Both the position numbers and the translations under genes were made by a program. This document shows, in pieces, positions 14,231 through 43,812 of a DNA stretch of 64,000 nucleotides; positions within the stretch are counted from its first letter, which is position 1; every line of letters starts with the position of its first letter. Source of the stretch: Eledone cirrhosa (taxonomy: Eukaryota); NCBI GenBank assembly GCA_964016885.1, contig OZ024740.1, positions 280,550,001 to 280,614,000 on the forward strand, given 5' to 3'. The notes beneath the pieces are model-generated. The model was not told the DNA's origin and ran no database searches. It saw nothing but the letters and a program-made list of their open reading frames with translations.

Positions 14231-14275
14231 TTCCTTTTCTGATGAAAGGTCACGCGACCGGAAACGTTAAAATTT
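14231..14275 (+). ncRNA. Candidate minimal type-I hammerhead ribozyme
   Basis: CTGATGA-aa-ggtc-acgc-gacc-g-GAAAC-gtta, with the core at 14239-14265. Confidence 0.6.
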
Positions 14276-14559
14276 ACTTCCTTTCATAGCACATAAACTC
14301 GTTTACTTTATCGGTTGATTTTAGCATAAGCAGACTATCAATAGTTCCCTTCGGATCTAGTTTTTTCTTTATTATTTTAAATCTAGTTTGGTGCAGATCA
14401 GATGATGTTTTTAGATATATGATGAAATTTCCAGCTATCCCGCAGTACGACTTTTAATAGAAATAAAAGATGGGATTGCTATGTATTGAATTTTTTTGAT
14501 CATAAGTCTACCCCGACGATGCAAAAAAAAAGATACATCGAAAATGAAGTCGCGCATAC

Positions 14560-15150
14560 AAAACAGATGCAGTGACGCCACGAGTAGAGTCACCCACGTC
14601 AGCTAGTTCTGCTAGAAGTTGGAAAACAACGGCTATCTAATATATTTTACCATCAAAATGCGGGACTCCAAGACCAGAAAACAGAATCTGCTTCTATAAA
14701 ATTCCATACTTCGGCGAAAAAACAACCAGCGCTATCCACAAGGTTATCTGGAGGGAGGGACACAATATCCAACTGGCCCTCTGGACTCTCCTTGCGAAGA
14801 TATTTATCATGGAACATCTCCATAAAGAGAAGAGTATGTGTTCTCTTAGCAACTGCCCCATACACAAGACAATTTATTGCCTTCATGCATAGGTAAGCTA
14901 AAAGCTAGAGTGCAACAAGTGCATTGGTTGTTACATCAGCAGCACAATTCGATCCATGCTCATCTGAATTAAGAAACACGTCACCACTGATTCCTCATCA
15001 TTCCGAAACACTTTCTTAAATGTGGAAACAAAGAGCCACTCCGTCACGATACTAGCAACGGAAAGCAACATTGTCACCCTGAGAATCATGCTGTTTTGAT
15101 AATAAGAAAACAAATTAAAACAGACTGGAAAGAAACAAGGCACAATGGCT
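14560..15150 (+). mobile_element. Decayed Penelope-like GIY-YIG region
   Basis: Translation near 14905-14980 gives LECNKCIGCYISSTIRSMLI*IKKH, resembling the PLE motif C..C...YIG.T.R....R..EH. Confidence 0.5.
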
Positions 15151-15214
15151 AATTTTGCATCAAAATCAAAATAAATATGTAAATGAGTAAATAAATTATT
15201 TTTTCACTCCTTTC

Positions 15215-17035
15215 CATGTCAGGTGGTCAGTGCCAACATGTGCCTTGAAGTCTCCCATCAGGGTATATGCCTTAGTCATAACTACATCTAACGTTACAGT
15301 AACTTCATCAATGAAGGACCAGTATTCGGACTGGTTGGTGCATAAACTGCATTAGCCACAGGGACCTATCTTTCAGCTTATGCTTCAAGAGGCAAATCTG
15401 ACAGCCGGGGGCTTGTAAGTGTCCCCCCACTCCCACCTGGGCAGTCATTTCTGGCGCCGCACCTGAATAGTGGAGTTTCCATCCTCCATCGAAATCTACA
15501 GTATCAGAGCCATGGAACTTTGTTGAGAAAACCCCGAATATATCTAGCCGGTAGCATGTAGCCTAATCCACTAGTTCCTGCTCCTTACCTGTAATGGTTG
15601 TGATGTTCCAGGTTCTAACTGTCAAGGTTTGCTCCTTGCCGGACCCTCTTTGGATACTCGGGATACAAAATATTTGTGTCTCCATCCTATGCCTTCCAGA
15701 ACAATGAGTCCGAATACGGGCCCTTTCTTGATGAAGTAGTTAAGAATGTAGTTAAGAATGTAGTTAAGGGTGGCCTGGATCTCTGGAAAAGCACCTACGA
15801 AATAGCAATCGGGAGTAATAATCCCAATTTTCAAAAAGGGAGACAAGAGAGATTGTTCTAATTACAGAAGGATCTCCTTGTTAAGCCTCTCCGATAAAGT
15901 CTATGTTAAGTGTTTGGTAAAGAAATGCAGGGAGATTGTGGAGTCAAAGGTAGCTGATAAACCGTGTGGTTTTTGCCCCGACGCAGCACAGCCTACAAAT
16001 ATTCACACTGCGGCAGGTATTCTAGAAATCGTGGAAGTATTTTTTGTTGACCTTGAGAAGGCATATGACCGCGTGTTCCTCAGGACCTGCTGTGGAAGGC
16101 TATGCAGGAGTATGGGATCGATGGTCAACTTCTTGCTGCTCTGATATCTCTATACGAATGTTGCTATATTGAAACCATTCAACGTGGGCAGCCGGATTCC
16201 ACCAAGGGTGCGTACTGTCACCTATCCTGTTCATTATTTTCATGAACAGGATTGACATACGCAGCCGGCTTGGAAGTGGCATCATGACTGGCGGTGTAAA
16301 ATCAGTCGGCTGGAATTTTCAGACAACATGGTGTTATGTAACTCGACAGAAGGTGATCTCTAATTTGCACTCGATAGGTTTAATGTCGAGTGCTGTATGG
16401 CTGCGAAAACTGAGACACACGTTCTCTCAAGGCTGCTTGCGCAGTGAACGTTACATGTGAATGGAGTTCCACTGAAGTCCGTACAGGAGTTCAAGTATCT
16501 CGGGGCTGTGTTAACGAGTGATGGAAGGCAGGAGGTTGAATTCCTGCAAGAATTGCCGGGGCTGGTACAGTAATGCGCTAGCTTCAACATTCAGTAATCA
16601 GGAGAAGGGAGCTAGACATAAAAGCTTAACTCGCTATCTTCAATTCGGTATTAATGCAGATCCTTACCTATAGTAATACATTTTGTGTAAAGAATACGAT
16701 CTCGAATACAATCAGCCAAAATGGGGTTCCCCCGATAGAGTGCGTAGCTCGGAGATCAGAGAGTCACTCCAGGTAGAGCCGCTACTTATCCGAATTGAGA
16801 GATCACAAATCTGATATTATGGACATGGGGTTAGAATATCTCAGGAAAGAATCGCTGGACAGATCTTACGGGTAAGACCAGCCGGAAAGAGACCCAGGCG
16901 TGGACCCCCGAGCAAGATTGCTGGATAACATCCATGAGCTTGGCTGGTCTCGCATGGGGATCCAGCAGGTCCTATTAGAAGCAACCATCTCCAACTGAAC
17001 CGGCTGTATCCAAAAGCGAAACCAGCCAAGCTCAT
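15215..17035. mobile_element. Rearranged RTE LINE: APE part on - strand (15215-15690), RT and C-terminus on + strand (15770-17035)
   Basis: FVDLEKAYDRV and QGCVLSPILFIIFM-like RT motifs on +; gtccgaatac...gaagtag (15708-15745) is an inverted echo of about 15280-15332; similar to 38200-38530 and 40330-40600. Confidence 0.75.
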
Positions 17036-40610: not shown

Positions 40611-41296
40611 ACAAAACCAGCCCCCCTCACTGTTTACCCTCAGAAATAATGGTTCAGGAAGTTTTATTAGAAAGATGCAATTATTTAGTACAGGCCAAAA
40701 GGACATATAGGGGACACCCAGATAAGGAGGAATAAAAAAAAAACTAGACAGATAACGTATAAATGAAATAAATATAATATATAAATCTTCATACCCATAT
40801 AGAATTGCACCCATACACTGATATATTCAATAAATAAACATTGTTGCCTCGAAAATCGAGACGAAGTGTGAGTGTATTTGAAATTCACAGAAATAATTTG
40901 AAAACTCGAACGTAAAAATAGCTGTTAAAAATAGCTACGAGTTACTTAATCAGCGGGAAATTAGTACCTCTGGAATAGCTCAATTGCCACCTCACTGCTC
41001 TGGTTTACTTCAGCCATCGCAGTAGTAAACTCAATCTTCAGTATCATGTAACTTGACAGCAAAGGGGAGGCAAGCTAGTTTTGACTATTACCCGAGACCA
41101 CATTGGCACGTATTCAAACTGAACACCCCCACCCAAAACGGACCATGAAGCATTTAATCAGGGCTTCCGTATAGAGAGCAAAGACATGATTGCAAATAAT
41201 TAATAAATAAATCGAACTATATATATATACATATATACTGTATATATATATATATATATATATATATATATATATATATATATATATATATATATA

Positions 41297-41942
41297 ATTG
41301 TTTCTACTTTAGGCACAAGGCCAGCAAATACCCAGTGCATTACTGGTACTTTATTTTATCGACCCCGTAAGGATGAAAGGCAAAGTCAACCTCGGCGGGA
41401 CTTGAACTCAGATCGTAAAGGGACGTAACTATGCTGGAAAATATATATTAGAATGTGCGTTTGATATACGCTAGTATTCGAAACATTCAACATTAACTGA
41501 CTGACCATTCAATACATAAACACACATACATATATACATATATACATACATACATATATAATTGCTTCTACTTTTGGCACAAGGCCAGCAAATACCCAGT
41601 ACATTACTGGTACTTTATTTTATCGACCCCGTAAGGATGAAAGGCAAAGTTAACCTCGACGGGATTTGAACTCAGATCATAAAGGGACGTAACTATGCTA
41701 GAAAGCATGGCGTCCAACCTTCTACCTATACTGTCACCGCCCGTCATAGATACATACATAATTGTTTCTATTTTAGGCACAAGGCCAGCAATTACCCAGT
41801 ACATTACTGGTATTTTATTTTATCGACCCCGTAAGGATGAAAGGCAAAGTTAACCTCGGCGGGATTTGAACTCAGATCATAAAGGGACGGAACTCTATGC
41901 TTCAAAGCACGGTGTCCGACTCTCTACCGATACTGCCAATCA
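41297..41942 (-). mobile_element. Three tandem SINE family 1 copies; more at 49777-50192 and 62724-62890
   Basis: Repeated SINE consensus. Confidence 0.85.
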
Positions 41943-42851
41943 TACATAATAGTTGTATCTCAGTTTTGAGATTTGCCATCTCTTAACTCTTTTTTTTTAT
42001 ACAAGCGTGGTAGGCACATGACAATTTAGCCCTTTCAAGGTCTTACATTCATTTCTGCATATGCTGCAGCAAAAGAAAGAAAATGCCATGATCACGCAAC
42101 ACACATGAAAGTCGTTTAGATCAAGTGATGTTTGTGTTGAAGCTTTTTTAAGTGAAGAAAGGTCTTGTACTGGACCAATCCTACTCTCTGAACCATGATG
42201 ACAGGTATCCAAAAAGAACAGGTTAACAGCATTGACTGCTATCGAGTTGCTCGTTTTACATTAGGTTTTATATCTCCTAGAATGATGTCCTAACAAGAAC
42301 ATCTCTCACTCACGCTGGGCTAACCGCGCGCTTGGGAAATAAATCCAGTATTTCCATGTCCTCACGCATACATACATACATACATACATACATACATACA
42401 TACATACATACATACATGATGGCTGCTCCCTCGTTATCGAGTATGGCCATTGCACGATATACCATTATTAATAATTACTAATTAATTCTATTGTACAATG
42501 CCTGTACGTGAAGATATTTTTTAAAGTGAGGAAAGACTGTGCACTGAGCCAATCCCACTCTCTGAGTGACAGTAGCTATAACCCGAAAAGAAGAAAAGAT
42601 CAACATCATCGGTACCTACTGAGCCGCAGGTTTTATGTCGGAGTTATCCCAGTTTCCTGAGTTACCTTCTCCCAGAAGAATGCCCTGACAAAGGCTAGGG
42701 CTCCTTCACTCCCAGTGGTTTAACCGCGCGATCGGGTATCCAGCCCGATTATTTCTATTTTCCCGCGCATATACACACATATGCACACATGCATATACAT
42801 ATATATATATATATATATATATATATATATATATATATATATATATATATA

Positions 42852-43812
42852 TATTATTATTATGTAATAAACAACATAAGGCAATTATTCCATTTACCAG
42901 TGGTTTCTTAAAAGTAAAAGGTTTTGCTTTCAATCCTCAGAATGAAAAATCCTGGTTTGTTTATTGAATATGGATTCTAAAAACAAAAATGCAATCTATA
43001 TGAAAGTGAGGCTGGAAAAGGGAGAAGGAAAGGAAAAATAAAATAAAACTACACATGCAAACACACACAAAAAAACACAAAAGCATACTTACACACACAT
43101 ACATATATACACATATATATAAATGCACGCATACACATATACATATACACATATATATATATATATATATATATATATATATATATATATATATATATAT
43201 ATATATATATATATATATATATAAAGAGCGTACACCTACACACACATACACATATATACACACATATACACATACATATATTCATACATACACACACACA
43301 CACACACACACACATATACACACACACACACACACACACATATACACACACACATATATATACACATGTACATATCCACACATATATATATATATATATA
43401 TATATACATATATACACATATACATACACACACACACACACACACACACACACATGTGTGTGTACAAGCATACACATACACATACACATATATATACACA
43501 CACATACATACATTCACACAAACATACAACGTACATACATACACATACATGAATGCACTCCACTACATATTCACACAAGCAAATAAATATAAGAAAAAAA
43601 TATATAAATATATATATTTATTTTATTTTTCCTTTCCTTCTCCCTTTTCCAGCCTCACTTTCATATAGATTGCATTTTTGTTTTTAGAATCCATATTCAA
43701 TAAACAAACCAGGATTTTTCATTCTGAGGATTGAAAGCAAAACCTTTTACTTTTAAGAAACCACTGGTAAATGGAATAATTGCCTTATGTTGTTTATTAC
43801 ATAATAATAATA
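42852..43812. repeat. Fold-back (42852-43050 vs 43615-43812) enclosing CA/TA microsatellites
   Basis: Reverse-complement arms; minimal CTGAGGA-tt-GAAA at 43724-43736. Confidence 0.75.

Follow-up and report, generated by a model that had tools for sequence, protein, structure and literature searches.

A window of 64,000 nucleotides from the 3.0-Gb genome of Eledone cirrhosa (positions 280550001-280614000 of OZ024740.1) contains a series of small modules, each bearing a type I hammerhead ribozyme motif. [quoted passage not shown] The initial annotation, made from the letters alone, had suggested PLE termini or retrozymes. Both are present: seven families were traced to reverse transcriptase (RT) and GIY-YIG endonuclease frames, comprising one family of Neptune type, five of Hydra type and another GIY-YIG family, and two further families are non-coding tandem units. 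The window presents new Hydra- and Neptune-type PLE families plus retrozymes, and no new kind of element.

A strict hammerhead descriptor (CUGANGA, stems I and II of at least 3 bp, palindromic stem III) yielded seven matches in the window against 0.01 expected from 100 block-wise dinucleotide shuffles. An extended descriptor, which adds long stem II and cores with a C3-G8 or U3-A8 pair, yielded 12+1 = 13 matches against 0.03+0.12 = 0.15 in 200 shuffles, a frequency far above that of dinucleotide-shuffled DNA. These matches, in which inverted copies are counted twice, represent nine families and all lie at 17.7-43.8 kb of the window. The type I core CUGANGA...GAAA...UH was found, with family H as a U4 variant and family A as a U3-A8 variant. 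The Rfam hammerhead model, proposed as a check in the initial annotation, gave no match at the gathering score over 14000-44200 of the window and none at E<=10 over the family E site (23860-24200); an earlier Rfam scan had no hammerhead among the 150 of 211 matches listed. This lack of any Rfam match, the false matches from one simple satellite (L361) and the imperfect sites B (14239) and C (18656) would suit chance matches in palindromic, AT-rich repeat DNA, an explanation we find scarcely credible against the 13 matches in the window, the 57 matches versus 0.95 expected in a 400-kb genome sample, and the invariant cores with compensatory stem changes. Chance is refuted for the motif set as a whole, though not for site B.

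Conservation of core and stems across copies, whose absence the initial annotation would have counted against itself, is evident within the families. Among members gathered by BLAST and not by the descriptor, shared variants occur in 0 of 70 core columns, compared to 175 of 508 flank columns (families A, K, M, E, F, G and D; p 3e-12). Family H contributes two variable core columns out of ten, making 2/80 in total, and family I was excluded because its rows mixed strands. The hammerheads thus appear to be kept under selection within their source elements. In alignment A1 (19 rows from family E and two look-alike families), both sides have changed in 10 of 14 pairs, and the covariation score was reached by none of 500 shuffles; as its rows are related and were selected by the descriptor, A1 supports but does not prove the fold. 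Together with compensatory pair changes in stem II of family F, it points to a three-helix fold open at stem I. All seven stem III palindromes of at least 6 nt have a favourable predicted homoduplex (-3.2 to -10.5 kcal/mol) and an unfavourable, positive monomer hairpin, as expected for dimer-active PLE hammerheads (PMC4209133; PMC6765202).

Fifteen hammerhead sites had been claimed. Eight of them pass (20303-, 24065+, 24772+, 25991-, 29252-, 30563+, 32908+ and 43724+) and two are family-conserved variants, namely 23265+, with a stem II of 2 bp, and 30205-, with A in place of U4. Three are damaged copies (23533+ in stem II; 28421+ with GAAA changed to GCAA; 31484+ with GAAA changed to GAAG), and two are weak (18656-, with a poor stem I, and 14239+, a single copy in the genome search and without a TA flank). 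The self-complementary stem III palindromes named at the outset were all found, whereas one further site (17728+) and the partner-arm copies at 23240-, 25199-, 30419-, 30951-, 32773- and 42940- had been overlooked. The features are arranged along the window as follows.

14235..14272 (+), site B: imperfect hammerhead with ACGT stem III and an extra G before GAAA; one match in its own genome and no TA flank; probably what is left of an old PLE
14689..15087 (+), fragment of a decayed PLE linker and GIY-YIG domain, lying downstream of site B at a distance of 450 bp (tblastn E 3e-21, 36% to the family H endonuclease)
17197..17998 (+), family N module in (TA)n, with no linked open reading frame (ORF): the hammerhead (17724-17845) has a long, branched stem II
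18522..18905 (-), family C module, a dispersed repeat without a linked ORF: core at 18656 with a poor stem I and a short stem II
20180..20428 (-), inverted 3' end of family A (short end) with intact U3-A8 hammerhead 20303-20270
20426..22616 (+), 5'-truncated Neptune-type PLE body of family A: RT 20428-21405, GIY-YIG 21306-21935 and part of the 3' untranslated region (UTR)
23089..23328, family D fold-back of Hydra-type PLE 3' ends: long end left, short end right; cores 23240(-) and 23265(+)
23502..23677 (+), 3' end (long end) of a family A subfamily, with damage in stem II
23756..24377, family E retrozyme insertion with ~430-bp unit: short end left, long end right; hammerhead 24065(+)
24490..24898 (+), diverged subfamily of family F: hammerhead at 24772; short end
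24951..25738 (-), partial tandem of the family F retrozyme with 538-540-bp unit: hammerhead at 25199; long end
25833..26580 (-), 3' end of a Hydra-type PLE of family G: short end on the left; the hammerhead at 25991 has a branched stem II
26745..26992, A2 end pieces in inverted orientation, mirroring 28469-28615 (self-BLAST)
28331..28615 (+), A2 module, a dispersed repeat: the hammerhead at 28421 is A-like and has GCAA in place of GAAA
29161..30005, two-ended remnant of a family A subfamily: hammerhead 29252(-)
30028..30301 (-), family H PLE 3' end (long end): core CAGACGA (U4 variant) at 30205
30324..30986, Hydra-type fold-back of family I at 30324-30740 (short end left, long end right), together with a second arm on the minus strand; cores 30419(-), 30563(+) and 30951(-)
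31035..32262, fold-back of family J without a linked ORF: short end on the left, long end on the right; both hammerheads damaged; insert resembling a short interspersed element (SINE) at 31634-31989
32582..33013, Hydra-type fold-back of family K: long end on the left, short end on the right; cores 32773(-) and 32908(+)
42855..43884, young Hydra-type two-ended insertion of family M: short end left, long end right; cores 42940(-) and 43724(+)

Genome searches linked family A to a complete PLE. Its RT-GIY-YIG frame (20428-21935) has at least 123 genome matches at 94-100% identity; the RT matches Pfam RVT_1 with an E of 2.7e-6, below the curated cut-off, and the endonuclease matches Pfam GIY-YIG with an E of 1.7e-7. 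A homologue search with the protein led to unnamed proteins. All 20 long family A loci possess the U3-A8 hammerhead seen at 20303 and share the order (TA)n, inverted 3' end, truncated copy, full unit, (TA)n. Locus L021 combines an inverted end, a partial tandem, ORF1 and the RT-GIY-YIG ORF2, and the layout of endonuclease-containing (EN+) PLEs, which consists of a pseudo-long terminal repeat (pLTR) in partial tandem, an inverted 5' piece and a one-sided tail, was seen there and at other loci. In translation, ORF2 displays DKG, a CX4CxxC linker and a cysteine pair between GIY and YIG. By the motif criteria in the available text of PMC8557442, family A would be of Neptune type, a CX2-5CxxC linker being common to Nematis too. 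The full unit (L021:2558-6021) encodes an ORF1 of 409 residues and an ORF2 of 775 residues that overlaps it in the -1 frame. Within the overlap lies a U-UUU-UUA heptamer in frame, which is unaltered in 28 of 29 reads of this site, a count that takes in overlapping loci; a weak hairpin lies 7 nt downstream, and a programmed frameshift between the two frames is likely. A frameshifted ORF1 is indicated for some PLE types in the Fig. 1 legend of PMC8557442.

The nine further modules searched beyond family A each proved to be a dispersed repeat. Upstream sequence runs into Hydra-type frames in families M, G, I, D and K, and into another GIY-YIG frame in family H. An RT with a C-terminal GIY-YIG domain was recognized in the translated frames of M, G, I and H, and by tblastn to the M protein in D and K. 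Family M has the full set of Hydra motifs, namely RWK, DKT, a CxCX5C linker and the lack of a cysteine pair inside GIY-YIG. The linker is found in M, G, I and D, and the N-terminal motifs were seen in M only; K was placed by tblastn only. On this basis, M, G, I, D and K would all belong to the Hydra clade. The modules had originally been called unrelated, which does not hold for these five families with related Hydra-type proteins, nor for four sites that form one Neptune-type group.

Family M has a second, internal hammerhead 1.2-1.4 kb upstream of the terminal one (L319 and other loci). Its core is intact in 10 of 11 copies, but position 17 is G, and this copy might serve the terminal site as a partner strand that cannot be cleaved. 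The long arms of family J (e.g. L271) end near the word AAGATGGCCG at the upstream end, which we take to be YY1-site-like; family J may be a short non-autonomous element. Short TA-flanked repeats or hairpins at window positions 19360-19470, 33105-33254 and 60630-60890, in which no hammerhead was recognized, are probably further PLE tails.

Families E and F are of a different nature. Their units, of ~430 bp and 538-540 bp, respectively, are tandem and non-coding, with one hammerhead per unit and a longest Met-initiated ORF of 38 (E) or 41 codons (F). Family F forms arrays of about six 540-bp units, and family E forms arrays of about 12 units, in addition to one of at least 30 kb with 57 stem III matches. 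The latter, at G000:C28:109990001-110020000 (L386, L370 and L385), is a retrozyme turned satellite. A comparison with five autonomous elements brought out no similarity to the units of E and F beyond microsatellites and chance matches. The predicted circular folds are stabler than those of shuffles, with z of -4.6 for E and -4.9 for F, and the unit RNAs are possibly released as circles. Co-folding of two E ribozymes gave intermolecular pairing in which a double-hammerhead fold is not clear. Other tandem hammerhead units, of 310-311 and 465-467 bp, were observed at L342, L353, L359 and L026.

Further analysis of the insertions revealed a common rule for their ends. The hammerhead sits at a constant distance upstream of two TA junctions, which are specific to the family and separated by 37-170 nt; in nine of the ten families of one tally, two discrete 3' ends were found joined to TA, with family I taken from a separate analysis. 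After deduplication, 164 outward-facing end pairs remained, and among the 152 that could be classified, 146 combine a long with a short end, against two long+long and four short+short pairs. At loci not selected for the family concerned, the proportion is 29 of 30, and the six fold-backs of the window (D, E, I, J, K and M) also obey the rule. Either end type can lie on either arm. In L026 and L032, the shorter of the two arms bears the tail, and this speaks against a single cDNA having been copied by snap-back. Fold-back junctions vary from copy to copy, and in K they cluster at a CATATG palindrome. A one-sided tail was already known qualitatively (PMC3846280, PMC8557442). At the short ends of A, K, I, H and D, the element sequence reads TATA followed by a CYCC-like stretch, and a motif resembling GAGTGCT/GAGCAC is common to the tails of D, K, M and I; these are candidates for a priming microhomology and a protein-binding signal.

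The near-strict pairing of long and short ends suggests that both cut DNA strands start a copy. With moderate confidence, we propose that reverse transcription is primed from both nicks, one per start site. The PLE protein would nick both strands of the self-complementary (TA)n target, after which one 3'-OH would start cDNA at the distal site, giving the long end with its tail, and the other at the proximal site, giving the short end. The two truncated cDNAs would then join head to head, often at short palindromes, to form fold-backs. In tandem transcripts, the palindromic stem III is predicted to let the hammerheads cleave as dimers and release unit RNAs. In vitro, two internal RT start sites bracket the tail, and both strands are extended (Frangieh 2024, PMC11167929). 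In the model put forward in PMC3846280 and PMC8557442, an antisense transcript primes its own copying at a palindrome, and resolution by staggered endonuclease cuts leaves only one side with a tail. It likewise predicts one long and one short end and agrees with the junction palindromes, such as CATATG in K. However, the arms are very unequal in length, the tail may be on either of them, both end types join TA at fixed points, and an anole PLE primes on sense RNA at two sites in vitro (PMC11167929); we therefore regard self-priming as unlikely, albeit a serious contender.

The arms of the fold-backs pair into long duplexes, and the junctions of J, K and D cluster among the copies fetched, as would be expected if fold-back units were a distinct mobile class whose whole palindromes are copied via double-stranded RNA (dsRNA) or as miniature inverted-repeat transposable element-like DNA elements. 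Nevertheless, junction sequences vary between copies, queries spanning the junction account for the clustering in J and D, families K, D and I run into PLE frames, and the ends are asymmetric, unlike terminal inverted repeats. Such a class is highly improbable, and mobilization of fold-backs as units was rejected on the differing junctions and the bias of junction-spanning queries. In all four plus-strand fold-backs that were folded, the core pairs with the mirror arm in a long duplex, so fold-back copies would be silent as ribozymes. The distinct dsRNA-forming mobile RNA system envisaged in the initial annotation is accordingly unsupported: the arms would bury the ribozymes, the junctions are variable, and the inverted-pLTR-plus-tail layout described in PMC3846280 and PMC8557442 is matched. 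Any dsRNA from fold-backs would be a by-product. Most copies in the window would be inert, being solitary, damaged or paired with their own mirror arm, and ribozyme activity, if any, would belong to the tandem sources, namely the pLTR tandems and the E and F arrays.

Several points weigh against our interpretation of PLE ends and retrozymes with priming on both strands. The Hydra and Neptune clades were assigned by motif only, the rows of A1 are related and were picked by the descriptor, and RT/GIY-YIG frames were not found for J, N, C and A2, while B has only an endonuclease fragment nearby. Twelve of the 164 end pairs have an unclassifiable end and six break the rule. Partner arms have minor alleles in common more often than chance but incompletely, at only 93 of 179 against an expected 45, and family E shows no excess; a sense-strand A-to-G excess, as a scar of editing, appeared in none of 11 sets. 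Cleavage, unit RNAs and circles are predicted here from sequence. In vitro, ribozyme mutants had no effect on insertion and no reads ended at the cleavage site (PMC11167929); only one of nine retrozyme dimers cleaved in Li et al. 2026 (10.64898/2026.07.22.740005), and PLE hammerhead activity is low even as dimers (PMC4209133). Cleavage in the first of these systems is protein-assisted and dispensable for insertion in vitro (PMC11167929).

The insertion mechanism and the role of the hammerhead are described as open questions in PMC8557442 and PMC11167929. The long+short rule, extending over three element types, makes a sharp prediction for an in vitro assay, for which the young intact elements of families A and M with their (TA)n targets are suitable substrates. 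A more speculative extension, which we hold only tentatively and consider doubtful, is that two-ended priming by a single asymmetric ribonucleoprotein, with a long start site for one target strand and a short one for the other, is the default for Neptune- and Hydra-type PLEs and their retrozymes, that stem III may pair two RNAs so that both templates are supplied, and that, with some 3 x 10^5 hammerheads, no animal genome described so far would offer a richer stock of natural ribozyme variants.

The genome sample comprised forty 10-kb stretches at round coordinates of large contigs, not randomized. Six of its 57 matches were dropped (four in simple satellite, one duplicate and one doubtful). 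Leaving out the stretch in the E array, 36 motifs in 39 stretches correspond to 0.92 per 10 kb (bootstrap 0.54-1.38), or about 2.8 x 10^5 motifs genome-wide (1.6-4.1 x 10^5); the estimate is 3.8 x 10^5 with that stretch included. A biased set of gathered loci (1.74 Mb) holds 595 matches in 49 clusters, a few of them false. TA runs number 18.3 per 10 kb at 14231-43812, compared to a sample mean of 18.1. By these figures, the window is an ordinary if somewhat dense sample of its genome. At an estimated ~90 motifs per Mb, the genome constitutes a large natural library of core and stem II variants. For comparison, PMC7229834, using other descriptors, gives 5,000-6,000 hammerheads in mussel and coral and 126,247 in the 28-Gb axolotl genome.

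Other repeats and exons surround the hammerhead region. A SINE-like repeat is abundant (window 4154-4539, 31634-31989, 33260-33463, 41286-41941 and 49770-50192), with one copy inside the J element. Window 53167-56592 (-) encodes an intact non-LTR-type RT frame of 1141 residues with a zinc-binding C-terminus, and decayed relatives of this frame lie at 4968-12820. VWA-domain exons at window 59441-60064 (+) and L387:3583-4149, 53% identical, flank the hammerhead region on both sides; the cluster may lie within a long intron or between VWA paralogues.

Hammerheads and tails of PLEs and their targeting of (TA)n are already published, and the supplement of PMC8557442 includes a Hydra element from octopus that has a hammerhead and prefers (TA)n. 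The elements had been thought poorly described in cephalopods, which is not so for this (TA)n-targeting element, though little else was found: the literature searched, beyond whose reach most subscription papers lay, held nothing else relevant on hammerhead ribozymes in octopus. The interest of the present families rests on their scale and on the testable long+short rule, the remainder being well explained by known biology.

The Hydra-type families resemble the Hydra-clade PLEs, including Hydra-1_Obim (Craig et al. 2021, PMC8557442), in RWK, DKT, the CxCX5C linker and the C-terminal GIY-YIG, as well as in (TA)n insertion and a 3' type I hammerhead with palindromic stem III; the family M protein resembles Hydra-1_Obim in a comparison by eye. 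They differ from the elements described in the available parts of that source in that at least five families with unrelated 3' ends coexist, tails measure 64-170 nt compared to 30-40, and family M is ~4.3 kb long with a microsatellite-rich 3' UTR and the second, G17 hammerhead copy. Family A shares with the Neptune-type EN+ PLEs of PMC8557442 the DKG motif, the CX4CxxC linker and the cysteine pair between GIY and YIG, besides the partial tandem, inverted piece, tail and (TA)n bias, whereas its upstream ORF1, overlapping ORF2 in the -1 frame at a U-UUU-UUA heptamer, sets it apart from those described there.

Like the minimal PLE hammerheads of Cervera and de la Pena 2014 (PMC4209133), those of the window have a type I fold, a palindromic stem III, an extra base after A9 and a U3-A8 variant, and they fall into many diverse families per genome, mostly as solitary truncated ends. 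By contrast, several families here have a branched stem II of 50-100 nt, and the estimated count, obtained with a different descriptor, is far above the 2,000-9,000 per genome given there. Families E and F agree with metazoan non-LTR retrozymes (PMC7229834; Li et al. 2026, 10.64898/2026.07.22.740005) in their non-coding tandem units with one hammerhead each and in their predicted self-paired fold. The F unit exceeds the 150-450 bp range of PMC7229834 but lies within the 51-972 bp of Li et al. 2026. Unlike the retrozymes described in the available text of these two sources, E and F bear the insertion marks of PLEs, namely an inverted arm and long and short ends in TA.

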